A DNA stretch of 59,847 nt, from positions 1 to 59,847 of IMG/VR virus record IMGVR_UViG_3300045117_000178; one strand, given 5' to 3'. Origin of the DNA: a virus (Duplodnaviria > Caudoviricetes). Both the position numbers and the translations under genes were made by a program. Below, piece after piece: positions 4,137-49,487 of this stretch. Under the pieces are notes generated by a model. It had not been told where the DNA came from. It saw nothing but the letters and a program-made list of their open reading frames with translations, and did not search any database. Numbering within the stretch: position 1 is the first letter of the stretch; each line of letters opens with the position of its first letter.

Positions 4137-4163
4137 CTTATACCAACGTGGGCGTGAAGATTC
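4137..4163 (-). promoter_or_regulatory. ATAAG-class promoter motif
   Basis: GAA-N19-ATAAG 36 nt upstream of the 4101 start. Confidence 0.55.
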
Positions 4164-4166
4164 GGA

Positions 4167-4487
4167 TCACTTCTTGGTCAGATCCGCCAACCCCTGGAGC
4201 AGCTGCTTGAGGTCGTCCATCGTGGGCGGCTTCCTCGAATCGTCAGGCTTCCACGGCGTGTTAGAGGGCTGGAGCCTGCCGGTAGCCAAAGCTACCCTCA
4301 CGCTCTCGACGTACATGGTGTAGAGGTGCTCGACCTGCTGACGAGCTCGTCGCTCGCACATCTTAGCCAGAGCCAGGCAGTTGCTGCAAACGATCACACC
4401 TTGGAACTCGTTCTTGCCCTTCGTCGGGTGACCGCAGTTGAGGCAGAGATGGAAGCCTGGTTGGAGAGCAGTGAGTTCAGACACCAT
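4167..4487 (-). CDS. Zn-finger hypothetical protein
   Basis: CLNC...CSNC. Confidence 0.65.
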   Translation of the reverse strand: MVSELTALQPGFHLCLNCGHPTKGKNEFQGVIVCSNCLALAKMCERRARQQVEHLYTMYVESVRVALATGRLQPSNTPWKPDDSRKPPTMDDLKQLLQGLADLTKK

Positions 4488-4914
4488 GCAGACCCGACCT
4501 CTGAAGTCGGCTCTCGATGTCCCTCTCTTCGGCCCCCTTCAGCTCGCCGCGGACGATCCGCTTCATGCCTTCACCCACTGGACCCTCCTGGTCCAACGGG
4601 TAGATGTAGGTAGGCTGGATCGTCATCTTGGGAAGGGGGCCAGGGCACATGTCGACGGTGGTGAAGAACGTGCGGCGCTGCAGATGCTGCAGAGGCGGCT
4701 CACCCTTGGCCCTGGCCTCCAGCAGCTCCTGCTGCGTGGGAGCGATGGGCAGATGCACGGTCGTGACCTGAAGGACATTCAGGAACGTGATGGGTGTGCA
4801 GGTCTCCATCATCGCGGCCAGGTCGTCGTAGGTCTTGAACGACTGACCGAAGTAGCGGTTGTTCGAATCGCCGAAGAAGAACATCCCCGGCTCTTCGTGC
4901 TCGATCTTCTCCAC
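4477..4914 (-). CDS. Hypothetical protein
   Basis: GGAGGTGA RBS before GTG; tiles with neighbours. Confidence 0.65.
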   Translation of the reverse strand: MEKIEHEEPGMFFFGDSNNRYFGQSFKTYDDLAAMMETCTPITFLNVLQVTTVHLPIAPTQQELLEARAKGEPPLQHLQRRTFFTTVDMCPGPLPKMTIQPTYIYPLDQEGPVGEGMKRIVRGELKGAEERDIESRLQRSGLHGV

Positions 4915-4917
4915 GAA

Positions 4918-5226
4918 TCACCTCCGCATGCCCATGTAGGGATTGTAGTGTTGCAGCTCCACGACCAGCGGCTGTTCGGAGAGCTGGTACTTCTCCACCT
5001 TCGACCCCAGCAGTCCGTCTGGCCCAAACAGCGTGCCGGTGCGGTCGAGGTTCCTCAGCGTGAACATGAGGATTCGCTTGTCGTCGATCCAGTGAACGTC
5101 CAGGACTTCGACAAGCCCTGACATTCGACTGATCGCAGGGAAGGCAGACACATGGAATCCGGACTTCCAGATGTTGGTGCCTTCGATCCACTTGGTCTCT
5201 TCCACTGTCGTCTTCACCTCCTGCAA
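4918..5226 (-). CDS. Hypothetical protein
   Basis: 102-aa ORF; start uncertain. Confidence 0.6.
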   Translation of the reverse strand: MQEVKTTVEETKWIEGTNIWKSGFHVSAFPAISRMSGLVEVLDVHWIDDKRILMFTLRNLDRTGTLFGPDGLLGSKVEKYQLSEQPLVVELQHYNPYMGMRR

Positions 5227-5247
5227 GAACCTAACAGATCTGCCGAG

Positions 5248-5275
5248 AAAAAGCCATCGGAGCTAAGGTTATAAG
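5248..5275 (+). promoter_or_regulatory. ATAAG-class promoter motif
   Basis: AAAAA-N18-ATAAG, then AGAAAGGAGGT RBS. Confidence 0.75.
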
Positions 5276-5297
5276 ATCAATAAGAAAGGAGGTCATT

Positions 5298-5636
5298 ATG
5301 GCCTTGCCTGCGATCGCAGCCGGAATCATCCGGCAGGCACTTCAGGTCAACTCTCGGCTGACGTACGACGAGTTCATCTCGGAGCACTCCGCGACTCTCC
5401 GCAAGGAGGGTCGTACGGTCTCGAAGAAGTACTTCGAGATCGTGCGGAGCCAGTTCAAGCCCTCCTCAGCCGCCCCAGCTCCTCCTTCCGGCATCCCTCA
5501 GTCGGTGTCGGAGGCCCTCGCCACCCTGGCCGGTGCGATGAAGGGCCTGGGCTGGGAATCGGTGGTCATCACCAACGGCAAGGTGACGATCACCGAGCGG
5601 CGCGTCCACACGCTGGACCTCTGCCCGCATGTCTAG
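5298..5636 (+). CDS. Hypothetical protein (putative early)
   Basis: Strong RBS; 112 aa. Confidence 0.8.
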   Translation: MALPAIAAGIIRQALQVNSRLTYDEFISEHSATLRKEGRTVSKKYFEIVRSQFKPSSAAPAPPSGIPQSVSEALATLAGAMKGLGWESVVITNGKVTITERRVHTLDLCPHV

Positions 5637-6064: not shown

Positions 6065-6111
6065 ACCCCTCCCTCGGGCCGCGGCCGAGGGAGGGGGTTC
6101 TACTCTTAGCT
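6065..6111 (+). terminator. Hairpin + TTAGCT terminator
   Basis: CCCCTCCCTCGG...CCGAGGGAGGGG stem then TTCTACTCTTAGCT. Confidence 0.7.
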
Positions 6112-11680: not shown

Positions 11681-12294
11681 CAGACCTTCTCGTGCGCGTT
11701 GTCCGGGTTCTGAACCCAATCCCGCTGAGTGACCTTCTGCGCGGTCTGGACCACGAGCGCGTTGAACTCGACGTCGTTGTACTCGCAGAAGCGGTAGAGC
11801 ATCCGCCAGATGTGGCAGAGGCACCACTGCATCTTCTCCGGGTGGTTCTCGCTCATGCGGATCTGTTGATCCCACTTGAGCACGGCGTGGGCTAGCCTGC
11901 CGATGACGATGGCCAGGCCCTCCATCAGGTGGTCTGCCGCCGGGCAGTGCTGATCGTTCTCGTTGTCCAGGTATGTCTGCTCGAAGACCGTGGGGATGGT
12001 GTCGTAGTTGACGATCTCCGGCACATTGAAGCCGCAGTTGAAGCAGAGATCCAGGCTGTAGACCATCATGTCAGCCACGGCGTCCATGATCTCTTTCTTG
12101 TAGTTGGTGCCCCCGGCGTAGGTGTCCATGAGTTCGCCGTACTCCTCGACGATGCCCATGACTTGGCGCAGGCGCTGGCGGCCCTCGATGTCGAGTTTGG
12201 AGCCAGGATCTGGCTTGTGGAACTGTTTGGCCCAGTTGCCGATGCGGTTCTTCCAGTCCTCGAGCTCACCCACGTTGAACAACAAACCGGACAT
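11680..12294 (-). CDS. MazG-like nucleotide pyrophosphohydrolase
   Basis: GIVEEYGEL...IMDAVAD all-alpha NTP-PPase motif plus a degenerate second repeat. Confidence 0.7.
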   Translation of the reverse strand: MSGLLFNVGELEDWKNRIGNWAKQFHKPDPGSKLDIEGRQRLRQVMGIVEEYGELMDTYAGGTNYKKEIMDAVADMMVYSLDLCFNCGFNVPEIVNYDTIPTVFEQTYLDNENDQHCPAADHLMEGLAIVIGRLAHAVLKWDQQIRMSENHPEKMQWCLCHIWRMLYRFCEYNDVEFNALVVQTAQKVTQRDWVQNPDNAHEKV

Positions 12295-12316
12295 TTCGGT
12301 CTCCTTCCAAGCAGTG

Positions 12317-12343
12317 AAAGTGTTGATGATCTCTCGTTATAAG
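12317..12343 (+). promoter_or_regulatory. ATAAG-class promoter motif
   Basis: AAA-N19-ATAAG. Confidence 0.65.
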
Positions 12344-12392
12344 AACTTTGTCGATCGATCGGGCTTTTACCACACCCACAAGGAGATCACCA

Positions 12393-12758
12393 ATGGCAAA
12401 GCACGTAGTCGTCGGAGAGGTCATCGGTTACGAGGTCAAGTTCCTCCCCTACCGCGAGGAGGAGATCAAGAGCCCCAAGACGGGCAAGGTCGTGGGCACC
12501 AGCTCGAAGTACCAGACCATCAGGTCGTTCGTCCACCTCCGCGTCCTGGACGGTGAGCGCCAGGTGGACATCGAGGTCAACACCGACCAGTACAGCGAGG
12601 GCGAGCCCTCTCGCGAGGACAACTGGGAGAGCACCAAGAATATGAGGCTCAAGACCTTCAAGCGCCTGGTGAAAGAGCTGCCCATGGGCAGCGAGGTCGA
12701 GCTCGAGCGCAAGACCGGCCGGGGTGACCGCCCCTACTACATCTTCCCCGAGAAGTAG
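12393..12758 (+). CDS. Hypothetical protein, possible OB fold
   Basis: ATG 12393 after AAGGAG; beta-rich. Confidence 0.75.
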   Translation: MAKHVVVGEVIGYEVKFLPYREEEIKSPKTGKVVGTSSKYQTIRSFVHLRVLDGERQVDIEVNTDQYSEGEPSREDNWESTKNMRLKTFKRLVKELPMGSEVELERKTGRGDRPYYIFPEK

Positions 12759-12779
12759 GAGCGGGTCACCCCGCAGGGG

Positions 12780-12815
12780 ACCACCCGCGCTGCCGCGCGG
12801 GTGGTTCTCTTAGCT
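12780..12815 (+). terminator. Hairpin + TTAGCT terminator
   Basis: ACCACCCGCGC-TGCC-GCGCGGGTGGT then TCTCTTAGCT. Confidence 0.75.
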
Positions 12816-13286
12816 TGAATCACGATTCGCGAAGACTTCGGGTCTGAACTTCTTGATCAGGAACTCGTAGAGCTTGGTCACCTTCATGGTGTGGTGTGGG
12901 TTCTTCACCTTGTAGCCCCACTTGAGATGAGCCCACCATTGATGATCTGTGTGCCCCTCCCTCTTGCAGTAGGCCCGCCACATGTCGGCTAGGCGGACCC
13001 ATTCCCGGATGTTGGTCCGGGGCACGAATAGCTCCTCTTCGCGGCCAAGGAATCGAGCTGACCCCCTGGCCGCGACGTGGACTTGCGTGAGGCCGTAGTC
13101 GTTGGTCTTGCTCTTGGTGCGCTTGTTCCAGCTTCGCGCGGTCTCGACGTGGATGAAGCTCACTACCAGCAGTGGATCTACGTCCTTGCGGGCGGCTTCG
13201 GTTTTGATGATGCGCACGTACTTCTTCGCAGTCGTCTTTCCGATGTGTGGGGCAAGAAACAGGATCGCTGCTAGTAGATAATGCAT
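12810..13286 (-). CDS. Lytic transglycosylase (SLT domain), possible endolysin
   Basis: VDPLLVVSFIHVET (catalytic Glu), DYGLTQV, NI motif; hydrophobic N-terminus. Confidence 0.8.
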   Translation of the reverse strand: MHYLLAAILFLAPHIGKTTAKKYVRIIKTEAARKDVDPLLVVSFIHVETARSWNKRTKSKTNDYGLTQVHVAARGSARFLGREEELFVPRTNIREWVRLADMWRAYCKREGHTDHQWWAHLKWGYKVKNPHHTMKVTKLYEFLIKKFRPEVFANRDSS

Positions 13287-13295
13287 GTCGTACTC

Positions 13296-13574
13296 CTAGT
13301 TGGCGCTGACAGGGACCGGCGCGTTGGGGTCGTCGAGCAGGACCTCGAACCCCGCGTGCGCCAGATGGCGTCTCAGCTCCTCGTTCTTGCGAATGGCCTC
13401 ACCCAGCGACACCCAGAAGTAGTTCTGGAGCTGGGCCATGTCGCCGATGGTCATGCCCCTCTCGCGCTGCAGGCGAAGGCTGATGACGTGCTCTTTCCGC
13501 TCGCCGTAGATCGACAGCTGGAAGAAGTTCTGGGCCGCGATCCCGGGCTCAGACGTCCCCTCGCTATGCGACAT
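13296..13574 (-). CDS. Hypothetical protein
   Basis: AGGAGGT RBS; 92 aa. Confidence 0.7.
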   Translation of the reverse strand: MSHSEGTSEPGIAAQNFFQLSIYGERKEHVISLRLQRERGMTIGDMAQLQNYFWVSLGEAIRKNEELRRHLAHAGFEVLLDDPNAPVPVSAN

Positions 13575-13652
13575 CGTGGTACCTCCTGTTGGTTGTAGAT
13601 CACGCCCGCCGAGAACACGGCTAGAGATGGGCGCTATGTGGATGAGGAAGGT

Positions 13653-14255
13653 CTAGGCCTCGGCCTGCTTCTCCGCGACCGTCGGCGGCGGGGCCTTGCG
13701 CTGGAAGGTCTTCGGCGCGTTGTTGGCCTTGGCCTTGGTATCGGTCTTGGGCTTGGCCTCGGTCTTGGGCTTGGGAGCCTCCTTCTTGGTCTCCTTCTTC
13801 GGGGCCGGCTTCGCCTTCGCCGCGGGCTTGGCCGCGGGCTTGGCCTTCGCCTTCGCCTTCGGCTTGGCCTTTCCCTTCTTGCCGGCGCGCTCGAGCGCCT
13901 TCTCCCACTGGCCCTTGCGCTTCTCCCCGTCCTCCTTGGCCCCGAGGGTGGCCGAGCCGCGTTCGTACACGCCCTCGAACTCGGTCTCGCCATCGTTGAG
14001 GATCTTGCGGCCGCGCTCGGCGATGCGGTACTGGCCACGGCTGTCGACGCCGCCCATCTCCACGAGCTCCTCCCGCACCGGCTTGCGGAAGGCGTTGCGG
14101 ACGGCCCGGATCTCCTCGGTGGTGACGTTCTCGGCCTTCTTGCGGAAGACCGAGGCCGCGATGTCACGCGCCTTCATCCAGTTCCGAGCGCCCTTGCACT
14201 CGGGGTCCAGGGCCTGGAGCATCTTCTGCTCCGACTTGCTCAGCTTCACGATCAT
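13653..14255 (-). CDS. Winged-helix protein with histone H1-like K/A/P tail
   Basis: LSKSEQKMLQAL...YRIAERG wHTH pattern; KAKPKAKAKAKPAAKPAAK tail. Confidence 0.7.
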   Translation of the reverse strand: MIVKLSKSEQKMLQALDPECKGARNWMKARDIAASVFRKKAENVTTEEIRAVRNAFRKPVREELVEMGGVDSRGQYRIAERGRKILNDGETEFEGVYERGSATLGAKEDGEKRKGQWEKALERAGKKGKAKPKAKAKAKPAAKPAAKAKPAPKKETKKEAPKPKTEAKPKTDTKAKANNAPKTFQRKAPPPTVAEKQAEA

Positions 14256-14277
14256 GTCTTTCCTCCGCGTTGGAAGA

Positions 14278-14299
14278 TCAGTGAATCATCGATCACTGA
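14278..14299. promoter_or_regulatory. Inverted repeat, possible operator
   Basis: TCAGTGA-N8-TCACTGA between divergent genes. Confidence 0.4.
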
Positions 14300-14312
14300 C
14301 CCAGTCAACCCC

Positions 14313-14339
14313 AAAAATGATTCGGGGGTGTGGTATAAG
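14313..14339 (+). promoter_or_regulatory. ATAAG-class promoter motif
   Basis: AAAAA-N17-ATAAG. Confidence 0.7.
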
Positions 14340-14367
14340 CTACCCAATCAACCGACGAGGGCAAATT

Positions 14368-14766
14368 ATGAATGATCAAGATCTCTTAGCGAGGCTGAAG
14401 CAGATAGCAGAAGCCGAAGACGCAGAGCGTCTGGCCGAGAAGCAGGGCCTCGCGAATCTTGCGGTCGTGGTTCAATCTCAGATCTCCGCACTTGTGAGCG
14501 TGCTTCGATCAAAGGATATCCTCACAGAGGAGGATGTCAAGGCCTGGGAACACCAGGCAGAGGTCGGCCAGCAGTTTCTGAGAGTGCTGATGGAGTCCAA
14601 TGCCGAGCGTGAGAACGCCTCAACCGCACAAGAGGCCTACGACGCGACAAAGAAAGGGTTGATGGCCGCTCGAGATCTTGCCGCCATGATCAGCAAGCGC
14701 GCAGCAAACGATATCGACGACAAGCTCAGGCAACTCGATGAGGCGTGGAAGGAGAACAACAAGTGA
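14368..14766 (+). CDS. Helical hypothetical protein
   Basis: Start reassigned to ATG 14368 (GAGG RBS). Confidence 0.75.
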   Translation: MNDQDLLARLKQIAEAEDAERLAEKQGLANLAVVVQSQISALVSVLRSKDILTEEDVKAWEHQAEVGQQFLRVLMESNAERENASTAQEAYDATKKGLMAARDLAAMISKRAANDIDDKLRQLDEAWKENNK

Positions 14767-15122
14767 TCCTCGTCGAGGAGTATGAGTGCTTCATCGAAGG
14801 CGCACGTCTCGACTGGCTGCATCCGAGTCACGGACGGTGGCCTGACCTGGCTGCGAGGTTCTTGCGTGACAAAGAGGACAAGGAGGGATTCCTGGTAGCG
14901 GTCTGGTGGGATGGTCGAGCCTACAGTGTCATCGTTGAGGGCCCGGAGGAACGTCACTCGATCATACAGACCTACCGGTGGGTTCCGTCGAACAGGGACC
15001 GAACTGTGTGGTGGTGCCGATTGTACCAACACCACGGTGCCGAGCTCGACACCAGCAAGGACGCAGCCATCCGGATTCGACAGATCGCCAACGCCAGCTG
15101 TGAGCTGTTCATGGACTACTGA
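14763..15122 (+). CDS. Hypothetical protein
   Basis: GTGA coupling, AAGGAG RBS. Confidence 0.7.
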   Translation: MILVEEYECFIEGARLDWLHPSHGRWPDLAARFLRDKEDKEGFLVAVWWDGRAYSVIVEGPEERHSIIQTYRWVPSNRDRTVWWCRLYQHHGAELDTSKDAAIRIRQIANASCELFMDY

Positions 15123-15167
15123 CGGCGCGTCTGCACCAAGATCTCGATCTTACCTATGCACGCGCGT

Positions 15168-15206
15168 GCGATCTCCAGCTGATGTTGGAGATCGTACATC
15201 TTAGCT
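15168..15206 (+). terminator. Hairpin + TTAGCT terminator
   Basis: GCGATCTCCAGC-TGAT-GTTGGAGATCGT then ACATCTTAGCT. Confidence 0.7.
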
Positions 15207-15249
15207 TCGTCGCGCTGGAGGTCAGTGACCTCGTGGTTGTACGCGCTAA

Positions 15250-15720
15250 TCACCTTGCGGACGCGTGCAACGAGCTCATCTCCGGAAATGGGCTTCTCGT
15301 GACCTGCTTGTGGTCGAGCACGACGTACTCTTCGATCTCTGCGAGGTTTGCTATCCGCAGTTCCTTCTTCCCCTTGAACTCCTCCGCGTTCCACACCTCC
15401 GGGCACCCGCCCGTCTGCCGGCAGTGATCCGGTATCAGATACCCCGATGTGTGCATCCACCCCGTCAGGCCGTCGTTCGATGCCCAGAACTCCAGGACGC
15501 TCTTCAGCGGGGCAAGGAGCACGAATCTCCACTCCTTGAAAGGGACACCATGGATCGCTGGCCCCGGAGGGCTCATCCTGTAAGACTTCTTCCACTGGCT
15601 GATCGACTGCTCCCACCACTCCCTCGTCGCCTGGCGATCTTCGTTGTATTGCACACATGTGATCCGCTCTCCAGACGCCGGCAGGACCTGGAAGGACCTC
15701 CTCCTGATCCCGTGGCTCAC
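15250..15720 (-). CDS. Hypothetical protein
   Basis: 156 aa, GTGA-coupled to tmk. Confidence 0.6.
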   Translation of the reverse strand: MSHGIRRRSFQVLPASGERITCVQYNEDRQATREWWEQSISQWKKSYRMSPPGPAIHGVPFKEWRFVLLAPLKSVLEFWASNDGLTGWMHTSGYLIPDHCRQTGGCPEVWNAEEFKGKKELRIANLAEIEEYVVLDHKQVTRSPFPEMSSLHASAR

Positions 15721-16385
15721 GGGTGCCTCTGACGGATGATTCGCAGCATGTCGGCCACGACATCAGCCGGCTGGGTATTGATCGTGCTGATGTGGTAGAT
15801 CTCCTCCGCCCCCACCGTCGGGATCACCTTCCCACCGGTCTCCATCGGCGCGTAGATGCCACCTGACTTGCCGATGAAGTAAGAAGGACGGCTGAAGCGC
15901 GAGTAGCGCTCGGCATACCTCTCCTGCAGCTCGTTGGAGTCGTACCGCTCCTTCACGTCTCTCTTCTTCATGCGCTCGGCTGCGATCTCCGGCGGACAGG
16001 TGAGGATGAAGACGTAGTTCGGTGCCAAGATCTTGCGGTGCATGAACTCGATGATCTCAGCCGGGTAGTTGTCCTGCTGGTAGACCCAGGTGCTGGGATA
16101 GTAGCGGTCGCACACGACCGTCTCCCCCTGCTCCAGGTGCGGGCGAATGAAGTTGCTGATGTGGTCCCAGCGGTCGGCAAGGAACAGGGGGAACATGCCG
16201 GCTTCGTCCGCGAGCTCCTCACCCTTGAGGATCTTGCGGATGTGGCGGCCAATGATGCCGTCGCTGGGCTCCTTGGTCCAGACCGCCTGGATGGCGGCCT
16301 CGTTCAGGACCTGGACCAGGCCCTTGGAAGCGGTGGTCGTACCGACACCATCCGCCCCATCGATCACGATGAACAGTGGGTCCAT
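15717..16385 (-). CDS. tmk: Thymidylate kinase
   Basis: FIVIDGADGVGTTT, TKEP, LFLADR..H, VVCDRY..ST.VYQ. Confidence 0.92.
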   Translation of the reverse strand: MDPLFIVIDGADGVGTTTASKGLVQVLNEAAIQAVWTKEPSDGIIGRHIRKILKGEELADEAGMFPLFLADRWDHISNFIRPHLEQGETVVCDRYYPSTWVYQQDNYPAEIIEFMHRKILAPNYVFILTCPPEIAAERMKKRDVKERYDSNELQERYAERYSRFSRPSYFIGKSGGIYAPMETGGKVIPTVGAEEIYHISTINTQPADVVADMLRIIRQRHP

Positions 16386-16400
16386 TGTTCTCCTCTAAGA

Positions 16401-16922
16401 TCAGAGACCGAGGTCTTGGGCCGACGGCCTCTTGAACGTGCTGGAAGGGAGAGGACTGGTGATGTCCTTGGCTCCCAACGGAGGGGTGACGACCTGTGTC
16501 TTCGCCGGGGCAGGGGCCGCCTGCCTGCCGGTCCCGGCAGTCGGTGGTGCAGCCGCTCGAGCGGACCCGGTTGCGGCCGCCATCTGCGACTGGGTGGCTG
16601 GGGCGCGCTGAACTTGTTGGGTGGCTGGGGCCGGTGCGTTGGCCCGATTGCGGGCAGCTATCATGCCTACCTGTGTTCTGGCCCCGCCGGCAGCCGCACC
16701 GGGCCCGAGAGTCGTACGGCTGATCTGCTGTGCGGCTTGAGCCATCGAGGACTGCCCCGCAGGGGCCGGGGCCGGAACCCCTGCCCCGCGGGACACTGGT
16801 GGCATCTTCGGCGCGGTGGCCGTTGAAGGTGGAGGTTTCGAAGGTGCTGATGGAGCCGGAACGCCGGTAACAGCGATCTTCTCCAACTCATCGAAGAATG
16901 CTGACAGGACTCTGATGTGCAT
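16401..16922 (-). CDS. Pro/Ala-rich protein with AFFDELEKIA tag (putative internal virion protein)
   Basis: N-terminal SAFFDELEKIA; rest low complexity. Confidence 0.7.
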   Translation of the reverse strand: MHIRVLSAFFDELEKIAVTGVPAPSAPSKPPPSTATAPKMPPVSRGAGVPAPAPAGQSSMAQAAQQISRTTLGPGAAAGGARTQVGMIAARNRANAPAPATQQVQRAPATQSQMAAATGSARAAAPPTAGTGRQAAPAPAKTQVVTPPLGAKDITSPLPSSTFKRPSAQDLGL

Positions 16923-16927
16923 GCCCG

Positions 16928-16957
16928 ATTCTAGCGCCTGCTAGTGGCTGGTGACAA
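16928..16957 (-). promoter_or_regulatory. sigma70-like promoter, leaderless
   Basis: TTGTCA-N18-TAGAAT-N5-ATG. Confidence 0.6.
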
Positions 16958-17300: not shown

Positions 17301-17509
17301 CAGACGTCGTTGGGGCCGACGGTCTTGCCACCGCGGCCCTGGGCGCGGTCGACCGCGCGCTTGACCAGGATGCAGACCTGCTCGCTGAGCGCCTCCGGGA
17401 AGTCGCCCCCCATGCGGAAGCCTTCGCCCCCGATCTCCTGGACGTACTCCTTGACCTTGCTGGTGACGACCAGCATCGGGAGCTCCTTGACTACCTTCTT
17501 CTCTGGCAT
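17300..17509 (-). CDS. Bacterial histone-fold protein (Bd0055-like)
   Basis: LVVTSKVKEYV...DFPEALSEQV..LVKRAVDRA...GKTV...DV; 69 aa; GGAGG RBS. Confidence 0.85.
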   Translation of the reverse strand: MPEKKVVKELPMLVVTSKVKEYVQEIGGEGFRMGGDFPEALSEQVCILVKRAVDRAQGRGGKTVGPNDV

Positions 17510-17797: not shown

Positions 17798-17800
17798 AAC

Positions 17801-36300: not shown

Positions 36301-37428
36301 CTAGTACTGCTCGACGGCCGGGTAGTGGAGGCCCTGGTCGACACGGTTGTTGACCGCGCCGAGGTCCTCCTCCTCCATCGGCGTGACGGCGCTGAGGATG
36401 CTGTCCGCGTTGTGGAGGGTGGCGTCGCCGGAGTAGAGCTCCATCTTCCGCACCGACGCGATGTTGATGATCCCCAGGGCGATGTCCTCCCAGGACTGCC
36501 AGGTGATCAGGTTCGCGATCTTGTCGATGTAGAACTTGGTGTTGTTCAGGACGTAGAACTTCCCGAAGAACTCCGGCTTGGTGAAGGTGTAGAGGTTGCC
36601 CGGCCGCAGGAGGTCGGTCTTGATCGTGCGGGTGTACGCGCGCCCGAGGAGCGTGTTGTACTTGTACCCGTCGGTCGTGGTCTCGCTCTGGAGCCTGTTG
36701 CCGAAGTCCTCGACCGTCCACTGGAGGATGTCGTCCCAGTCGACCTCGGTCAGCAGGGTCATCTCGGCGCGCAGGCGGTGCCCGTCGAGCAGCTTGTAGA
36801 GGTTGACCACGTCCGGCCTCTGGAGCGGGAGGCTGACGCTGCCGTCCACGGCGGCCGCGCGGGCGAGCTCGCCCTTGCGGACCGAGAACTCGACCGGGGG
36901 CGTCGCGCCCTGCAGCGTGGTGGCGCTGAGCTCGGGGGCGGCGGCCAGGCCGTTGGCCTCGGCCTGGAGCGCCTGGACAGCGGCCTCGATGTGGATGAGG
37001 AACTCGCGGTCCTCGATCTCCTGGATGTCCTTCACCGAGTTGTCCTCGATGACCTTGGTGATGGGCATCTCGTACGCCAGGAGCTCCTGCTCCACCTTCT
37101 CGAACTTCTCCGAGCTGATGGTGAAGAAGGGGATCTCGGCGCGCGGCGCACGGACGAAGTTCGCGCTGGGCTGGCCGCGGAAGCTGACAGCCATGGCACG
37201 GGACTTCGGCTCGACGTCGACGATCTTCACCAGCGTGTCGTGCTTCACGGAGCGCTGGCAGTCGGCGCGGGTGACGGGCTCGGGCGGCAGGATCTTGCGC
37301 GCGAACGACACCTCACGGAGACGGTCGCGGATGTAGTTGCCGCCGTACTCGGCGATCTTCTCTTTGCCTTCCGTGGTCTCCAGCCGCTGGCTGAAGAGCT
37401 CGGTCAGGACTTGTGCGGTCGTACTCAT
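36301..37428 (-). CDS. Major capsid protein
   Basis: 375 aa, strongly biased codons, strong RBS; IRDRLRE.SFARKI, IQEIED..F patterns; position after scaffold/decoration genes. Confidence 0.8.
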   Translation of the reverse strand: MSTTAQVLTELFSQRLETTEGKEKIAEYGGNYIRDRLREVSFARKILPPEPVTRADCQRSVKHDTLVKIVDVEPKSRAMAVSFRGQPSANFVRAPRAEIPFFTISSEKFEKVEQELLAYEMPITKVIEDNSVKDIQEIEDREFLIHIEAAVQALQAEANGLAAAPELSATTLQGATPPVEFSVRKGELARAAAVDGSVSLPLQRPDVVNLYKLLDGHRLRAEMTLLTEVDWDDILQWTVEDFGNRLQSETTTDGYKYNTLLGRAYTRTIKTDLLRPGNLYTFTKPEFFGKFYVLNNTKFYIDKIANLITWQSWEDIALGIINIASVRKMELYSGDATLHNADSILSAVTPMEEEDLGAVNNRVDQGLHYPAVEQY

Positions 37429-43370: not shown

Positions 43371-43676
43371 CTACTGGTAGTACGCCGCCTGTTCCGGCTG
43401 TTCCGGCTGTTCTTCTCCTCTGAGAGACTTGATCTTCGCTCGGAGCCTTTGTACCGGGCCGCTCTCCCACGTCTTCTTGGCCCCCCACCCGGCGGCAACG
43501 TAGGGCGCGACCTTGGCCGCGAGATGTGCGACCTCGCTCTTCACTCCGGCCTCTGCCAGCTGTCTGGAGAGCGCGTTGCCCGCGCGATTCAGGCCGCGAA
43601 ACGCACCAGCGATCATTCGGCCAGCACCAGCTTCCTTGCGGAGGATCGCGTACGCGATGTCAGCAGCTCTGCTCAT
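43371..43676 (-). CDS. Small KxA putative virion protein
   Basis: LRKEA near N-terminus. Confidence 0.7.
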   Translation of the reverse strand: MSRAADIAYAILRKEAGAGRMIAGAFRGLNRAGNALSRQLAEAGVKSEVAHLAAKVAPYVAAGWGAKKTWESGPVQRLRAKIKSLRGEEQPEQPEQAAYYQ

Positions 43677-45082
43677 CTTCGATCTCCACCGGGTATGGCC
43701 CCCGAAGCGACGATGCCAGCTCCCAGCCCGGCCGCCCCGCCAGCGACCGTGCCGATCCTCGCGTTCCGAAGCGTTCGCACAGCCTCCCCTGGGACTTGGG
43801 ATACGGATTGGGCTACCTGTTTGCCTGGTACCCCGGCGGCGATTTGGTTGGTGACCTTCTTGCCCAAGCCGAGGGACGCCCCTCCAGCTAGCCCCGCCCC
43901 CAGTCCTCCTCCGATCAGCGCGCCCTTCAGAGCTCCGCTTCCCCGCTCACCGGGCTTGGCGGTCGCCGCACCGATACCCGCACCCAGAAGTCCCGGAACG
44001 ACGGCACCACCCAGGGCAGCTTTCGCGGCAAAGCCGAGAGCGACCTTCTCGATCTCGTCCTCGATGTCATCGAGGTCTCGAGCCGATGCCATCTTCACTG
44101 AGGGATTACTGATGGCTGGGGAAAGGGACTGTTCTATCTGACCCAGCTGGTTGTCGAACGATCGAAGCCCGCGCTGGAGCTGCTGACCCTGACCCATGGC
44201 CTGTAGCAGGGAGGTGTTGATCTCCTGGATCCGATTGTCGAGCACATCGACCGCGCCCTGGAGCTGACGGAGCTCGGTCGCGGTCTTGGAGAACTCGATG
44301 AAGGTCGAGATCACCCCATGCTCGGGGTTGGGCTCGTGCCCGACAGCGGCCGACGAGCGGAGGCTTTCGATGAACGCGCGCTTGGTCATGACGCCATGGT
44401 TCACGAGCTGATTGCGGACGGCCGAGATCCCGTCATAGAGGTCCTGCTCGTGCCCGAAGTGAGACCAGGCCGCGGCGATCTTGGACAGCGGCTCGCCCAC
44501 CAGCACGCACTTCTTGACCTCGCCGTAGAGGTCCTCTTTGAGCAGCTCCATGCGTGTGGTGAGGCTGGAGATCTTGGACATCACGTGCTCACGCGCGCCC
44601 ATCGCGGTCGTGCGGAGCGCATGGAGATCGGAGAGGCCGGTCGCGGTCGGACCTGCGCAGGCCTGCTTGCCGAAGATCTCTTCCTCCACGTTCCTCGCCT
44701 GCGGAGCAGACGGCGGAGCGGAGTAGTCATCGACGTGGTGGGTATCGGGCTGGCTGCCGTCGTTCATGCCCTTCAGAACGACCGAGGGGTCGGCCGGGCC
44801 GCCCTCGAACTCGATGTTGCGGACGCTGCCGCCTTTCTCCCACTCGTTCTGGAAGGCGGACTGGTTCGCGAACTCACAGACGCGGCGCGCGTGCTCGGGA
44901 CCGAGGTCTTGGTCTTTGATGACTTCGAGCACGGCGTCTGAGAGCGGGGTGCAGTTGCTGGAGTACAGCGCGGCTGCCTGCTTGCCGAGCAGCTGGAGAC
45001 GTCCGGGGTCCACTGGACGTGCACGAGCCTGCTCGATGATACCTTGCGGCACCGCTCCTAGCTCTCGATCCATGTGGGGCAT
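43673..45082 (-). CDS. KxA-rich putative virion protein with C-terminal Gly zippers
   Basis: KQA x2, KTA, KMA, DEIEKVA then GxxxG helices. Confidence 0.75.
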   Translation of the reverse strand: MPHMDRELGAVPQGIIEQARARPVDPGRLQLLGKQAAALYSSNCTPLSDAVLEVIKDQDLGPEHARRVCEFANQSAFQNEWEKGGSVRNIEFEGGPADPSVVLKGMNDGSQPDTHHVDDYSAPPSAPQARNVEEEIFGKQACAGPTATGLSDLHALRTTAMGAREHVMSKISSLTTRMELLKEDLYGEVKKCVLVGEPLSKIAAAWSHFGHEQDLYDGISAVRNQLVNHGVMTKRAFIESLRSSAAVGHEPNPEHGVISTFIEFSKTATELRQLQGAVDVLDNRIQEINTSLLQAMGQGQQLQRGLRSFDNQLGQIEQSLSPAISNPSVKMASARDLDDIEDEIEKVALGFAAKAALGGAVVPGLLGAGIGAATAKPGERGSGALKGALIGGGLGAGLAGGASLGLGKKVTNQIAAGVPGKQVAQSVSQVPGEAVRTLRNARIGTVAGGAAGLGAGIVASGAIPGGDRR

Positions 45083-45101: not shown

Positions 45102-45130
45102 ATTCTAGGCGGGAAGATCTATGAGGTCAA
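45102..45130 (-). promoter_or_regulatory. sigma70-like promoter heading the head-tail operon
   Basis: TTGACC-N17-TAGAAT. Confidence 0.7.
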
Positions 45131-45196: not shown

Positions 45197-45592
45197 ATGA
45201 TCCAAAACAGAACTGTGAGCAATGCCAGGTCCTTGACCAGCAAGCGCAAGGATTGGGATGAGTACCTCAGAAAAAACAGGGAGACCAACCGAAGACTCAG
45301 AGCGAATCTTCGTGCTGGAGCCATAGCCGCCCTTGGGGGGAAATGTGTCCGTTGCGGCTTTGGTGACATCCGCGCCCTTCAAATCGATCACATAGATGGT
45401 GATGGGGCAAAGGATCGCAAGGACCGCAAGATGAATCAGTGGATGTTCTACAAGTCGATTGCGGAACATGGTGGTCAAGGGAAGTACCAGTGTCTTTGTG
45501 CAAACTGCAACCAGATCAAAAAAATCGAGATGCGTGAACTTCCTCCGGGTCGGCAGCGCACTGAGTGGTACTATACCCACATCAAACGGTAA
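45197..45592 (+). CDS. HNH endonuclease
   Basis: LGGKCVRCG...LQIDHI...LCANCN; lower GC. Confidence 0.8.
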   Translation: MIQNRTVSNARSLTSKRKDWDEYLRKNRETNRRLRANLRAGAIAALGGKCVRCGFGDIRALQIDHIDGDGAKDRKDRKMNQWMFYKSIAEHGGQGKYQCLCANCNQIKKIEMRELPPGRQRTEWYYTHIKR

Positions 45593-45608: not shown

Positions 45609-46382
45609 ATGGGAAGTGCTGAAGATATCAAGCCCGTAGCAACGCTGGCAGACTACGTCGAGCCCCACGAAGCCGCCGAAATGCTGGGGGTGAAGCGCTC
45701 CACGATCTGGAACTACATCAAGCGCGGGCTCCTCAAAGGACGACACTTCAAGGGTCAGGGGAGGCGGTACTTCATACGCAAGATCGACGTCCAATCCATC
45801 GTGAGCGCGAAGGAAGAGATCGATACGAACGGCGGATCTCTCAAAGAGATCATCGCGGGCATCAGGATTCGTCTGCACAGCATCGAGTCCAGGATGGACT
45901 TCCTGATGGAGGCGTTGGGTCTCCAAGTGTCGGTTCTCAGGGACAAACCAGTCGAGGACTTGCTGGCGATCTACAATGACGCGGTTCTGGCTGGGTCAAC
46001 GAACCCGCGCTTCATCCCCGCGGTGCAGGTACGCAAGTGGGCCGATGTGCTCTGCCAGTTCACAGAGCTGGAATTCCAACGACTGGTCGCACCTACGCAG
46101 GACATCCACCCGTGGAAGCCGCTCTTCGGCCTCTGCGTCAACCTCCTCACGGACTTCCGCCGCCGCAAGCGCTTCGGGTCCGACGTCAACATGCAGCAGA
46201 CGTACCGGGTGCTGGACAAGGCACGCAAGCAGCTCAGCCGGGCAGTGATGGTGTTCGAGAGCTCCATGGCTTCGAACTTCGGACCCATCAAATCCGCACG
46301 CATCCACAAGATCCATAGCCACGCGGACTCTCTCGACCGCTACATTGACGCCGAAGTAGGCCTCCCAGAACCTCCAAACTGA
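45609..46382 (+). CDS. Excisionase/MerR-like HTH DNA-binding protein
   Basis: EAAEMLGVKRSTIWNYIKRGLL; start uncertain. Confidence 0.75.
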   Translation: MGSAEDIKPVATLADYVEPHEAAEMLGVKRSTIWNYIKRGLLKGRHFKGQGRRYFIRKIDVQSIVSAKEEIDTNGGSLKEIIAGIRIRLHSIESRMDFLMEALGLQVSVLRDKPVEDLLAIYNDAVLAGSTNPRFIPAVQVRKWADVLCQFTELEFQRLVAPTQDIHPWKPLFGLCVNLLTDFRRRKRFGSDVNMQQTYRVLDKARKQLSRAVMVFESSMASNFGPIKSARIHKIHSHADSLDRYIDAEVGLPEPPN

Positions 46383-46408
46383 AAACCGATCCTCCTTCTT
46401 GGGATAAG
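46382..46408 (+). promoter_or_regulatory. ATAAG-class promoter motif
   Basis: AAAA-N18-ATAAG. Confidence 0.75.
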
Positions 46409-46458: not shown

Positions 46459-46803
46459 ATGGCAACGAAGCCTGCAGCAGCAGCAAAGAAGCGCGAGATC
46501 GTCCACAACCAGGACGGTCTCTTCATCCCCACCGAACGCATCCCCGAGGTGCGGGCGGCGGTCGGGGAGAAGAACTTCGACAAGGCCGTGCGGGAGGCTG
46601 GCCTCGACCCGAAGGACCTCGCCAGCCCGGGGTTCGGCGACATCATCGTCGATACCTGGGGGTCGGGCTGGAAGGGGAAGGTCACGATCGTGGTGGCCGG
46701 CGTCGGGGCCGTGACGCTCACCCTCACCCTGGTGGAGGGCGGGTTCCGCCTCGCCGGCAGCGAGGGGCCGCTGTCCTGGCTCGCGCACAAGCTGGTCGGC
46801 TGA
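46459..46803 (+). CDS. Hypothetical protein with C-terminal TM helix
   Basis: AAGGAGG RBS; hydrophobic segment. Confidence 0.8.
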   Translation: MATKPAAAAKKREIVHNQDGLFIPTERIPEVRAAVGEKNFDKAVREAGLDPKDLASPGFGDIIVDTWGSGWKGKVTIVVAGVGAVTLTLTLVEGGFRLAGSEGPLSWLAHKLVG

Positions 46804-46837: not shown

Positions 46838-46877
46838 TCCCGGTAGATGAAAACCGGGAGTTCTTCTTAGCTATAAG
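46838..46877 (+). terminator. Hairpin + TTAGCT terminator overlapping next ATAAG promoter
   Basis: CTCCCGGT-N8-ACCGGGAG TTCTTCTTAGCT ATAAG; AAAA 19 nt upstream of ATAAG lies in the loop. Confidence 0.7.
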
Positions 46878-46897: not shown

Positions 46898-47089
46898 ATG
46901 AACAAAGAACAATTGATCCGTGCCATCAAAGCGCAGATCCGTGGTGCCACCGGTAGGGACTACATCGTTGATTGGGATGTGATGACACCAGCAGAGCTCT
47001 CCACCGTGCTCAGGCTCCTGAAGGACATCGAGGACGAGGCCAAGATGCGCGCCAAGCAGCGGGCGCGCAGGATGGGCATCCCGCTCTGA
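46898..47089 (+). CDS. Small hypothetical protein
   Basis: AGAAAGGAGG RBS. Confidence 0.8.
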   Translation: MNKEQLIRAIKAQIRGATGRDYIVDWDVMTPAELSTVLRLLKDIEDEAKMRAKQRARRMGIPL

Positions 47090-47090
47090 C

Positions 47091-47117
47091 GGAACGCAGG
47101 GGGGCGTTCCATTAGCT
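47091..47117 (+). terminator. Hairpin + TTAGCT terminator
   Basis: GGAACGC-N6-GCGTTCC ATTAGCT. Confidence 0.7.
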
Positions 47118-47119
47118 TG

Positions 47120-47147
47120 AAAACCGGACTGCCTTTCTTGGGATAAG
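47120..47147 (+). promoter_or_regulatory. ATAAG-class promoter motif
   Basis: AAAA-N19-ATAAG. Confidence 0.75.
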
Positions 47148-47173
47148 GATCGTAACCAAGAGAGGAGATTGTT

Positions 47174-47578
47174 ATGATCCATCGTCTTTGTGAGTGGCAC
47201 AACTACGACGGGGACATGCGGGGCTGGTCCCGCGGTGCCCATGGCTCGCCCGACATCGCGTGCAACGCCTGTAGGGCGGACGGGTCGTTCACCCCCGAGG
47301 AGGTGGGGGAGTACGAGCGGGAGGAGGAGGCGGAGATCGAGCGCCGCGCTCGCATCGTCACGGCCGGCAATGGGGCGCAGCTGCGCATCACCTGCCACAG
47401 CCCGCCGTTCAGTTCCGGCGGCGACTACAGGGTGATCCTGCTGTCCGGGGCGTGGCCGACCTCGGATGAGCTCATCAACCTCTGCAGCGCCGGCCACGCC
47501 CCCTTCGGGGGGTACGTGCGCATCGACGTTCACAAGGGCGAGCCAGTCGCCCACGTCTACGTGAACGGGACCGACTAG
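47174..47578 (+). CDS. Hypothetical protein
   Basis: GAGGAG RBS; N-terminal Cys/His cluster. Confidence 0.75.
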   Translation: MIHRLCEWHNYDGDMRGWSRGAHGSPDIACNACRADGSFTPEEVGEYEREEEAEIERRARIVTAGNGAQLRITCHSPPFSSGGDYRVILLSGAWPTSDELINLCSAGHAPFGGYVRIDVHKGEPVAHVYVNGTD

Positions 47579-47614
47579 GCTCCCTGGGTTCTCCAGGTCG
47601 AGTCTTCATTAGCT
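47578..47614 (+). terminator. Hairpin + TTAGCT terminator
   Basis: GGCTC-CCTGG-loop-CCAGG-TC-GAGTC then TTCATTAGCT. Confidence 0.55.
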
Positions 47615-49463
47615 AGCGCTTGCGCTTGGGGCGGAAGTCCTCGCCCGAGTCCTTCAGCGGCGCGATGATGTCCGGACGTGGGTACTTGATCATGGATGCC
47701 AGGAAGCAGTACACGATCGAGTGGAAGGTGTCGTCCGTGGTGCCGGGCGAGTGATTGTAGATCGTCATGCGCAGCTGCTTGCTGTACTCGCTGAAGATGT
47801 TGAGGATGTCTTGTCCGTAGGGCTCGAAGAAGTCATCCCAGTTCGGCAGCGCGATCTGCTTGCGGATCATCGCGTTGAACACGTCGCTCATGACCTCTGT
47901 GCGGTGGCACATGAACCGACGTAGCTGCGGCTGCCAGAAGATCTTGCCCTTCTTCTGGTTGGGGTTGTACTGGTACTTGAGCACCTTCTGCGGCCCGAAC
48001 GCGCGGACAAGGTGGTCATTGCGATCGAAGCCACCGCCGTAGTCGCAGCCGGTGATCTGGACGTTGTACCGCGCGAGGATGTTGCAGATGCGGTCGAGCT
48101 GCCGCACAGGCTCCAGGTCCTCACCCACGAAACGGTGTACCCAGAAGACGGTGAAGGCACCAGTCCCGAAGTACGTGCCCAGAGAGATCACGGTGTACGC
48201 ATTCTCTCCCGTCCCCCAGTCGATGCCGGCGAAGATGTCCTGGGTGTGACCGAACTTCATGTAGTACTCGAAGTCGCTGATCCGAATGTCCTCCTTGCAG
48301 CACGCCTTCAGCTGACCTCGAGTGATGGGACGAGTACCGCTGTCGTAGGAGAGGCCGAGGACCTCGTTGTTGAACTTCTGCCTCGGGTAGCGCTTCTGTT
48401 TCTCGAGCAGCCCCTTCCAGCCGTCAGGCGTCTTGACCACCCATGGCACCAGCAGCTGGCTGATGTGGTAGCCCTCGAACGTCACCTTCTCCTTGTTGCT
48501 GTCGGTCGCGGGATTCATCGCAGACCACACAGCGTCAGGGTGGTAGATTTCGATCGGCTGGTGGCAACGGTCGCAGATCAGTCCCTCGGCCCCGATGTTG
48601 TCCTCACCCAAGATGTTCCAATGCCAGGTGCTCTTGTCGCCGGGCACACCATGGTGCTCACAGGGGACGACCCACTCGTTCTGCGTGGAGAAGTTCGCCC
48701 AGTAGTACTCGATGGTGTTGTCTAGGCTCTTGGGCGTGCCGGAGTAGATGAAGATCTTCCAGTCGCTGTGGCTGGCGCACTCCTCGATGACGGGGATGTT
48801 GTCGACCAGGATGTCCTGGATCTCGTCGATGTCTATCAGATCCGTGGGGATACCGCGGACGCGGTCGGCCGTGAGGTAGGCGTAGCGAAGACGGATCTGA
48901 GAGTAGTTGATGAACTTCTTGTGGAAGACCGCATTCGTGAGCTTGGTGTTGGTGTACGCCTGAACGACCGGGCTCATGCTGATCGGGTCAGCGAGACGAT
49001 CGTTGGAGAACACCTTGGTCTGCTCGGCCGAGGGGCTGACGTACAGGCTCTTGAAGTAGTTGATGAGGCAGCTGTAGGCGAGCAGCTTGTTGCCGAGCGT
49101 CGTGCTCTTCTCGACCTGGCGGCCGGCCTTCAGCAGCGTCTTCTTCTCACCCGTGTCGTAGACTCGGCGGAGGTACGGGCGCTCTGCGAACGAGAAGTTG
49201 TCGACCTTGCCCTTGTCCGCAATGCGAATGGCGGTCTCTGAGAACTCGGACGGGGAGACGTTGTAGACGTAGTCGATCTTGGCTTCCGACTCGTCGACGT
49301 CTTCTGGCTCTTCATCGAAGCCGTAGTCCCTGGGCTCACCCTCTTCATCGAGATCGTAGAACGGCTCAGTGTAGATCTTGCCGTCCACAAGCTGCTGTGC
49401 GAGAGCGATCGGAACATCGATCTCTGCGCGGCGTGCTCGAACTCGACGAAGGTCAACAAGCAA
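47613..49463 (-). CDS. Terminase large subunit (lambda GpA-like)
   Basis: KAGRQVEKST Walker A, IDIDEIQD Walker B, SGTPK, C..H/CDRC Zn site, AGIDWG nuclease, DDTFH; start uncertain. Confidence 0.9.
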   Translation of the reverse strand: MLVDLRRVRARRAEIDVPIALAQQLVDGKIYTEPFYDLDEEGEPRDYGFDEEPEDVDESEAKIDYVYNVSPSEFSETAIRIADKGKVDNFSFAERPYLRRVYDTGEKKTLLKAGRQVEKSTTLGNKLLAYSCLINYFKSLYVSPSAEQTKVFSNDRLADPISMSPVVQAYTNTKLTNAVFHKKFINYSQIRLRYAYLTADRVRGIPTDLIDIDEIQDILVDNIPVIEECASHSDWKIFIYSGTPKSLDNTIEYYWANFSTQNEWVVPCEHHGVPGDKSTWHWNILGEDNIGAEGLICDRCHQPIEIYHPDAVWSAMNPATDSNKEKVTFEGYHISQLLVPWVVKTPDGWKGLLEKQKRYPRQKFNNEVLGLSYDSGTRPITRGQLKACCKEDIRISDFEYYMKFGHTQDIFAGIDWGTGENAYTVISLGTYFGTGAFTVFWVHRFVGEDLEPVRQLDRICNILARYNVQITGCDYGGGFDRNDHLVRAFGPQKVLKYQYNPNQKKGKIFWQPQLRRFMCHRTEVMSDVFNAMIRKQIALPNWDDFFEPYGQDILNIFSEYSKQLRMTIYNHSPGTTDDTFHSIVYCFLASMIKYPRPDIIAPLKDSGEDFRPKRKR

Positions 49464-49487
49464 AACGAGAACCCCACTTGTTATAAG
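49462..49487 (+). promoter_or_regulatory. ATAAG-class promoter motif
   Basis: AAAA-N17-ATAAG. Confidence 0.65.

Follow-up and report, generated by a model that had tools for sequence, protein, structure and literature searches.

The window and its ATAAG sites

The virus record IMGVR_UViG_3300045117_000178 of IMG/VR, 59,847 bases with a G+C content of 61.7%, was analysed over its whole length and is called the window in what follows. It carries 16 sites at which the pentamer ATAAG is preceded at a constant distance by a short A-run. The window is itself a fragment: CheckV puts its completeness at about 33% and close relatives reach 149-178 kb, from which it follows that roughly one third of a phage genome of about 175 kb is present. 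A codon-usage gene model gave 79 genes, most of them on the minus strand; the plus-strand genes form small clusters at 5.3-6.1, 12.4-12.8, 14.4-15.1, 17.9-20.4, 21.4-22.3 and 45.6-47.6 kb. We consider it fairly likely that the 16 sites represent a promoter class specific to one phage clade, which would be read by a phage-encoded factor of the sigma70 family together with the phage's own beta-beta' RNA polymerase, would serve early genes or non-structural genes more broadly, and would depend on an apparatus probably delivered with the virion. The strongest arguments for this reading are comparative.

All 16 ATAAG positions listed in a first-pass annotation of the window were present on the strands given there; for the two minus-strand sites the coordinate is that of the 5' base on the minus strand. 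As a bare word ATAAG is not over-represented (26 copies, 22.9 expected). Intergenic sequence makes up 12.4% of the window and holds 21 of the 26 copies, and ATAAG is the top enriched intergenic 5-mer (p=3e-15); ten copies lie outside the motif. In the 16 aligned sites, counted from the box, A is found at -21 in all, at -20 in 14 and at -22 in 11. G occupies -3 without exception, T occurs at -4 in 8 sites within a T-rich stretch from -9 to -4, and T or G stands at -1 in 15 (T in 10). ATAA and the final G follow in 16/16, and further downstream T is conserved at +10 (12/16) and A at +11 (11/16). The annotation had described an A-run about 21 nt upstream, separated from the box by 17 to 20 bases. 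The A-run holds, with A at -21 in every site, but its spacing proved to be fixed rather than variable. In promoter terms the motif consists of xxAAAA (-24 to -19, at about -35 from the presumed start), 17 bp of spacer, (T)G, a single unconstrained base and TATAAG.

The pattern AA-N16-G-N-K-ATAAG has 15 matches in the window against 0.16 expected from 100 dinucleotide shuffles, none of which reached 15; the motif thus stands far above a shuffled background. Fourteen of these matches are listed sites, and the other two listed sites, 22104 and 22435, each deviate by one base. The fifteenth match (983-1008, minus strand) lies inside a gene, has a matrix score of just 8.3 bits and was rejected as a site. 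Behind the anchor AA-N16-G-N-K the box is ATAAG 15 times, any of its 15 single-base variants once and ATAAT never. When a weight matrix was derived from the 16 sites, it picked out these and no others at 17.5-40.6 bits, the next best scores being 12.3 and 8.3; since it was trained on the same sites, this separation shows merely the absence of further near-matches.

Genes downstream of the sites

At 13 of the 16 sites a co-oriented start codon preceded by a Shine-Dalgarno sequence follows 25-55 nt downstream, in agreement with the annotation, which had placed most sites shortly before a strong ribosome-binding site. The exceptions are 21223, whose target is uncertain, 22435, which has a 29-codon frame, and 49483, which has no open frame. 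The genes behind the sites are mostly small ORFans, joined by a deoxynucleoside kinase and a ParB-like protein, and searches of the small proteins against Pfam and PHROGs gave almost no matches.

On the plus strand, the site at 5247-5275 (31.7 bits) is followed 27 nt after ATAAG by the gene 5298-5636 (112 aa, no family), and that at 12315-12343 (24.2 bits) is followed by the gene 12393-12758 (121 aa, no family) after 54 nt. The gene 14368-14766 (132 aa) begins 33 nt downstream of the site at 14311-14339; ATAAG likewise precedes its homologue in the metagenomic relative G002 (29% identity). The best matrix score, 40.6 bits, belongs to the site at 17799-17827, with the gene 17854-18129 (91 aa) 31 nt away. 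Directly after a hairpin and the word TTAGCT comes the site at 18197-18225, 39 nt ahead of the deoxynucleoside kinase gene (18260-18940, plus strand). The site at 19030-19058 precedes the gene 19085-19273 (62 aa) by 31 nt, and that at 19327-19355, again behind TTAGCT, precedes the ParB-like gene (19389-20387, plus strand) by 38 nt. For the uncertain case at 21199-21227 (35.5 bits) the next convincing gene is 21378-21596. The two sites that depart from the strict pattern follow: 22080-22108 (33.7 bits), with C at -1 and the gene 22135-22308 (57 aa) 31 nt downstream, and 22411-22439 (31.2 bits), with T at -20, where the 29-codon frame is the only one and a hairpin with TTAGCT lies at about 22693-22721.

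Four further plus-strand sites lie in the right-hand part of the window. That at 46380-46408 (37.8 bits) has the gene 46459-46803 (114 aa) 55 nt downstream. The site at 46849-46877 holds a terminator-like hairpin, a T-rich tail and TTAGCT within its spacer; the gene 46898-47089 (63 aa) starts 25 nt beyond it, and ATAAG is kept ahead of its homologue in the relative G005. The site at 47119-47147 (39.2 bits) stands after TTAGCT and 31 nt before the gene 47174-47578 (134 aa), and the site at 49459-49487 is divergent from the terminase gene and heads about 380 nt without an open frame. On the minus strand, the site at 4137-4165 (22.1 bits) precedes the gene 3463-4101 (212 aa, no family) by 40 nt, and that at 17550-17578 precedes the gene 17300-17509 (69 aa) by 45 nt. 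The latter gene has a homologue in G002 that keeps ATAAG upstream, and the site may be the head of a minus-strand non-structural operon.

The sites at 17554 (minus) and 17823 (plus) face away from each other across a divergent region of 344 bp. At about 17640-17760 this region contains a polypyrimidine run and then a near-perfect inverted repeat (CTTCTACATAGGGC ... GCCCTATGTAGAAG) with ATAAG in its loop. Judged from its sequence, the repeat might function as an operator, as a terminator in both directions or in the manner of an origin.

Within the virion and packaging blocks at 22983-45082 and 47613-59847 the coding (minus) strand carries no site, so the motif is indeed not found ahead of virion genes, as had been noticed earlier. 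It might be thought that the sites are not promoters at all and that they mark the boundaries of recombination cassettes or act in the messenger leader, in processing or translational control. They flank hypervariable ORFans (just 4 of the 13 proteins encoded behind them have a homologue in five metagenomic relatives) and often adjoin terminator-like hairpins, as do recombination-prone PeSL (promoter-early stem-loop) cassettes. However, a bipartite layout around 17 bp of non-conserved spacer is characteristic of DNA recognition by sigma factors and not of an RNA motif, and both the orientation of the sites and their distance to start codons are consistent throughout. A site that heads a unit without an open frame argues against a translational signal, and a role in recombination would be compatible with promoter function. 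We therefore regard a non-promoter explanation as very improbable.

The motif in related phages

Neither blastn nor megablast found a close DNA relative of the window among GenBank phages. A search with the polymerase protein described below retrieved six IMG/VR contigs at 58-88% identity, four of which were taken in full as records. Among GenBank phages the same protein found distant cultured relatives: the Vibrio phages D69, D181 and D148 (32% identity) and the Salmonella phage Arash (36% identity over residues 1-927).

The pattern AA-N16-G-N-K-ATAAG occurs 6 times in G005 (58% GC; 0.12 expected) and 18 times in G002 (54% GC; 0.98 expected). In Arash GKTATAAG is distributed 31/2 between the minus and the plus strand, compared with 3/4 for a reversed-pattern control, and G.TATAAG in D69 is distributed 39/9 (minus/plus), the control giving 15/9 (forward/reverse). 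On the Arash minus strand G.TATAAG is found 34 times and G.TATAAT twice. The 31 minus-strand copies in Arash extend from 20 to 171 kb, and the motif covers the whole non-structural arm of about 120 kb. An unbiased word count in a 50-kb non-structural stretch of this genome placed TGGTATAAG and TATAAGTA among the top words, beside words of the tRNA T-arm. Many copies in D69 share the long form GTTATAAGTAATATGTAA and are preceded by TCAATAA, in which AA occupies -21/-20, the same place as in the window.

ATAAG is also kept in place where the proteins have diverged. Among the promoter-driven genes of the window with homologues in relatives, three of four have ATAAG upstream of the homologue although the proteins are just 29-38% identical. 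Taken together, the counts across the relatives show that the core G-N-T-ATAAG and an A-rich element 17 bp upstream are kept in phages of Salmonella, of Vibrio and of a lake host, in genomes ranging from 45 to 62% G+C.

Relation to host promoters

The annotation had stated that the motif does not match sigma70. This is true of its sequence but not of its register. The extended -10 G, the hexamer, the 17-bp spacer and the presence of an upstream element are those of the sigma70 family. At exactly 17 bp, where TTGACA would be expected at -35, stands xxAAAA, without conservation at the positions of TTG, and the hexamer ends in G at promoter position -7. A built-in sigma70 scan of positions 12000-24000, which requires T at -7, found 5 canonical matches against 2.2 expected and recovered none of the 9 sites that lie there.

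The likeness to bacterial extended -10 promoters (sigma70/SigA, TGnTATAAT with an optional -35 TTGACA) is thus considerable, since register and spacer are identical and an upstream element is present. Could the primary sigma holoenzyme of the host read the sites as strong extended -10 early promoters, in the manner of T4-type phages, the final G being tolerated or an inherited quirk? The register TGnTATAAT with its 17-bp spacer speaks for this, and the promoter consensus of the lake host may differ from the sigma70 standard. The early promoters of PeSL elements, which those who described them in T4-type phages term composite promoter-terminator motifs, are read by host sigma70. According to the accessible parts of PMC2839356 and PMC4122927, PeSL cassettes consist of a terminator-like stem-loop followed by a promoter and flank small hypervariable genes. 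A comparable layout is seen in the window, where TTAGCT lies directly upstream of or within the promoter-like sites at 18221, 19351, 46873 and 47143; the preceding hairpins are strong at 18221 and 46873 (minimum free energy z -3.7 and -2.5) and weak at 19351 and 47143 (z -0.6 and -0.8). Unlike PeSL, however, the ATAAG sites are non-canonical, with G at -7 and no TTG at -35, and the stem-loop has a tail with the conserved word TTAGCT.

The base at -7 argues against host recognition. For primary sigma factors, T at -7 is one of two bases that stand out in conservation and are essential to the mechanism. According to the accessible part of PMC7598289, the pockets of sigma receive two flipped bases, A-11 and T-7. 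In the ATAAG class this base is G in 16 of 16 sites and never T; ATAAT takes the place of ATAAG nowhere in the window, and the Arash minus strand has the 34 to 2 preponderance given above. The upstream element reads xxAAAA or CAATAA and not TTGACA, conservation extends about 10 nt past the box, and the box is near-invariant while cellular ones vary. Moreover, the motif is common to phages of Salmonella, Vibrio and a high-GC lake host.

A truly canonical promoter is found in the same genomes. In the window it is TTGACC-17-TAGAAT at 45102-45130 (minus strand), upstream of the gene 43673-45082 (469 aa), and TTGACC-17-TA(G/C)AAT, with T at -7, is the form kept in G005, G002 and G004, making four genomes in all. 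Because the host-type promoter of the clade has TTGAC at -35 and T at -7, it becomes harder to view the ATAAG class as a quirk of host-type promoters, and we consider recognition by the host holoenzyme unlikely. The promoter at 45102-45130 is possibly an entry point for host polymerase at the head of the virion gene block.

A few virion genes have possible shared words upstream, namely CTTCTCA ... TGTAAGATA before 35632-36168 and its homologues and GTAGAT before 51175-53184. A second, late promoter class was considered on the basis of these words and set aside, the instances being too few to claim one.

RNA polymerase and sigma-like factor

A gene for a fused beta-beta' RNA polymerase occupies 55189-59847 on the minus strand. 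Its 5' end is cut by the end of the contig, and the 1552 visible codons encode the C-terminal part of beta followed by beta' in one polypeptide, with domain matches to Rpb2_6 (2.4e-62), Rpb1 domains 1-5, rpoC (3e-150) and the rpoB C-terminus (7e-70). The polymerase of G002 is a 2096-codon open frame with the catalytic motif NADFDGD and conserved clamp helices, and in this genome, 85% complete, only one polymerase set was found (a single Rpb2_6 match). The layout of the gene differs among the cultured relatives. In D69 (143288-150339, L025) the polymerase is annotated in two pieces of 1527 and 609 aa with two small genes between them, and in Arash as separate beta and beta' genes (131794-134667). 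As the enzyme is fused in the lake phages and split in D69 and Arash, the split points vary within the clade. In the accessible text of PMC10585845, mass spectrometry of Arash virions detected beta most of all proteins and also found beta' and the sigma factor gp10.

The contig breaks off inside the polymerase gene, beside poly-G and poly-C runs (59755-59847 and 1-245), which suggests an assembly break and not a genome end. A terminal repeat was not found at the window ends.

The sigma-like factor was reached only by way of Arash gp10. A homologue of gp10 is present in G002 (E=7e-15), and the G002 protein in turn finds one in D69, so that all three of the fuller genomes (G002, Arash and D69) encode a sigma-like protein. 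It is too divergent for the Sigma70_r2 model (PF04542), a six-frame search with which gave no match at E <= 0.1 in the window and four relatives. The G002 protein has 48 relatives in a large protein collection, on contigs of up to 178 kb, several of them labelled by JGI as specialised sigma subunit. A profile of 26 members matched solved structures of SigA, RpoS, SigB, FliA and RpoD best (best E=8e-11); some of the alignments run from sigma region 2 into region 4, and the factor, of about 265 aa, is predicted to comprise regions 2-4. The best Pfam match was Sigma70_r3 (4e-5, 24.1 bits, curated cut-off 25.3). As every Pfam and NCBIfam match is below its curated cut-off, the protein is a divergent member of the family. 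The Sigma70_r3 match just under the threshold is a further likeness to extended -10 promoters, whose TG is read by region 3 of cellular sigma factors.

An AlphaFold model of the factor had a mean predicted local distance difference test score (pLDDT) of 75 and a predicted template modelling score (pTM) of 0.42. Among the best 50 or so of 117 Foldseek matches with E <= 0.001, all were sigma factors or initiation complexes containing sigma; the template modelling scores (TM-scores) were low, about 0.2-0.33, which we tentatively attribute to a differing arrangement of domains. When the factor was modelled with residues 1000-1400 of the G002 polymerase, the complex scored 0.82, a mark attained by 58 out of 80 solved complexes and by 2 out of 110 mismatched pairs; the best control scored 0.00. 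Three runs agreed in at least 68% of contacts, the pLDDT of the partners was at least 69, and residues 79-99 of the factor (region 2) were placed on polymerase residues 1183-1240, the predicted clamp helices. The model may merely reflect likeness to solved sigma-beta' complexes; it would speak for compatibility and not for binding, and a host core could also be the partner.

This last point leads to the question of whether the factor reads the motif with the host core while the phage polymerase uses another signal. Phage sigma factors that reprogramme the host core, such as T4 gp55 and SPO1 gp28, are an established precedent, and the factor aligns to regions 2-4 of cellular sigmas and might therefore fit a cellular core. 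In T4 late promoters (TATAAATA) the -10 box has a strict form peculiar to the phage, which the sigma-like gp55 recognises together with the host core; they have no -35-like element and serve late genes. The ATAAG class resembles them in combining a strictly conserved, phage-specific -10 variant with a phage relative of sigma, and differs in that the clade's factor is larger and the sites avoid virion genes. On the other side, the clade has a complete beta-beta' enzyme with clamp helices and NADFDGD, onto which the complex model sets region 2 of the factor, with the reservation just made. Beta, beta' and sigma are all found in Arash virions, as far as the available text of PMC10585845 goes. Nor did an intergenic k-mer analysis of the window bring out a second highly repeated motif as a possible signal for the phage enzyme. 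We judge the use of a host core improbable, and prefer to pair the factor with the phage polymerase.

A polymerase working without sigma has also to be considered. It would recognise ATAAG as an initiator at or overlapping the start, like the non-virion polymerase of phiKZ with its TATG. Short motifs overlapping the start are known for multisubunit phage polymerases (PMC7598289, in its accessible part), and leaders 21-50 nt long would be feasible under this model. The sites, however, have a constant upstream element placed as in sigma70 promoters and a G at the extended -10 position without exception, neither of which is expected of an initiator motif. The clade encodes a sigma70-family protein, and the conservation 6-10 nt past ATAAG (T+10, A+11) falls where a start directed by a -10 box would lie. 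The sigma70 register with altered -35 and -7 is better matched by a sigma factor of the phage than by a polymerase that needs none, and we give the initiator model very little credence.

The closest described kind of promoter, judging from the accessible part of PMC7598289, is that of the AT-rich, -10-centred early promoters of jumbo phages with virion polymerases. As with the early promoters of phiKZ and AR9, an AT-rich motif is conserved around -10 ahead of operons presumed to be early, and the polymerase of the relative Arash is carried in virions (PMC10585845, available text), while that of the phage in the window is known from its gene alone. There are clear differences. The clade polymerase is far nearer to cellular enzymes, as the rpoC match shows. 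Beta and beta' are fused in the window, whereas those of phiKZ and AR9 are split into several small subunits and form two sets; in G002 one set was found. Finally, G002, Arash and D69 possess a sigma70-family factor and the promoter is bipartite.

Terminator-like elements and a candidate non-coding RNA

The word TTAGCT, met above beside several sites, is enriched between genes (11 of 17 copies are intergenic). About 11 copies come after a GC-rich hairpin with a short tail rich in T and C, and most of these are found where plus-strand units end. These copies lie at 2710-2715 on the minus strand and at 6106-6111, 12810-12815, 15201-15206, 18188-18193, 20431-20436, 22337-22342, 22716-22721, 46867-46872, 47609-47614 and 49863-49868 on the plus strand. 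Where genes converge, TTAGCT overlaps the stop codon of the minus-strand gene in three cases. TTTTAGC(T/C) occurs after hairpins in relatives too, including Arash and D69. In sequence, hairpin and TTAGCT look like a terminator with a conserved tail word.

One unit of this kind, at 49483-49868 (plus strand, about 380 nt), is located in the gap that separates the terminase gene from the following gene, on the opposite strand. It begins at an ATAAG promoter-like site and ends with hairpin and TTAGCT at 49863-49868; no open frame was found in its three frames and no match in Rfam. The arrangement is kept in G005/G001 and in G002, with conserved blocks TCTAGTTGGG and CATCCGAGTC about 124 nt after ATAAG. 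A consensus fold of three sequences showed compensatory changes in 24 of 60 pairs, from too few sequences to be trusted. On its sequence features the unit is a candidate non-coding RNA.

Other features of the window

All 12 sequencing runs listed for window positions 17000-23000 were lake-water DNA metagenomes (contigs), with no RNA run among them. The large terminase gene lies at 47613-49388 and the major head protein gene at 36301-37428, and genes for RNase HII, thymidylate kinase and one further kinase are on the minus strand. A gene for a MerR-like protein with a helix-turn-helix (HTH) is located at 45609-46382. Just upstream of it is an uncalled open frame of 131 aa (45197-45592, plus strand), whose spacing of Cys and His, read by eye, resembles that of an HNH endonuclease. 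The window yielded no tRNA genes, and no Rfam family reached its gathering score across the whole window. The cyanobacterial word HIP1 (GCGATCGC), looked for as a clue to the host, occurs 4 times against 1.9 expected and was uninformative.

The tetramer GATC is present 608 times compared with 206 expected from base composition. The excess is similar in G001, G002, G003 and G005, and G004 shows a deficit. Over the whole window GGCGCC is absent (52 expected) and CCCGGG occurs 7 times (52 expected). This composition suggests avoidance of restriction sites and perhaps a function related to GATC.

A proposed phage-encoded transcription system

The fixed bipartite geometry of the sites, their position before genes in the same orientation, their number far above chance and their conservation in relatives all point to promoters. 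That they belong to the transcription apparatus of the phage itself is, on indirect evidence, the reading best supported by these sequences: T never replaces G at -7, the hosts of the phages are very different, a canonical promoter coexists with the class, the clade has both a polymerase and a sigma factor, and the corresponding proteins are found in Arash virions. The label 'early genes', proposed in the first-pass annotation, is plausible in view of the small ORFans, the deoxynucleoside kinase and the ParB-like protein downstream. In Arash the motif spans the whole non-structural arm, and it may therefore serve early and middle genes alike.

Several points weigh against this reading. The sigma-like gene does not lie on the window, a fragment of 33% completeness, and its presence in this phage is deduced from the relatives. 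The architecture is so close to that of extended -10 promoters that the host holoenzyme could use the sites, and a phage sigma could redirect the host core like the sigma-like factors of T4 and SPO1. The modelled complex must be read in the same light, since any pair of sigma and beta' resembling solved structures would be expected to pass the prediction. Enrichment of the pattern is weak in G004 (45% GC; 6 copies, 1.48 expected), G003 has one site, and the deoxynucleoside kinase homologue of G002 lacks ATAAG directly upstream. In D69 the total of 48 G.TATAAG shows no excess over the Markov expectation of 39.6, so that the case of D69 is carried entirely by the strand asymmetry and the longer shared consensus. 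Finally, the gene coordinates come from a simple custom codon-usage caller and not from a validated tool.

Under the preferred reading a homologue of Arash gp10, a divergent factor of the sigma70 family, would recognise the TATAAG promoter and act with the fused beta-beta' polymerase of the phage. In TATAAG, G would substitute for the -7 T required by cellular primary sigma factors. The start of transcription would lie about 7 nt past the G of the box, near the conserved T-A-A at +10 to +12, giving short leaders ahead of the strong ribosome-binding sites, and most units would be single small genes ending at a GC-rich hairpin followed by TTCTTAGCT. As polymerase and sigma are both present in purified Arash virions, they could act once the DNA enters the cell. 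Taken further, and here we are more tentative, the odds being somewhat against it, these elements could make up a self-contained system in a widespread but so far undescribed clade of phages of about 150-190 kb, found on hosts from Salmonella and Vibrio to lake bacteria: a fused polymerase and a sigma factor with a -7 pocket changed in specificity from T to G, delivered with the virion so that early transcription bypasses the host enzyme, with the hairpin-TTAGCT element as terminator. A search of the literature on phage promoters, virion polymerases and Arash and its relatives found no description of the TATAAG motif; supplements were outside this search, and those of Arash might hold promoter predictions. 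The word 'promoter' does not occur in the main Arash paper or in the Carin-5 paper.

Knowledge of phages with a multisubunit polymerase of their own comes mainly from the phiKZ/AR9 group, in which the enzymes are highly diverged, work without a sigma70-family factor and use unusual promoters. If the proposed reading is true, the present clade would form a bridge between phages of this type and those that merely reprogramme the host enzyme. It would combine a near-cellular polymerase and a recognisable sigma factor with a sigma70 geometry in which one mechanistically critical base is changed, and would thus be a natural experiment on the base specificity of the -7 pocket of sigma. In metagenomes, G-N-T-ATAAG with an A-run 17 bp upstream would be a sequence marker for transcription units, and promoter and factor together would be a candidate orthogonal pair on a cellular architecture. 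The cultured relatives Arash and D69 make the reading directly testable.

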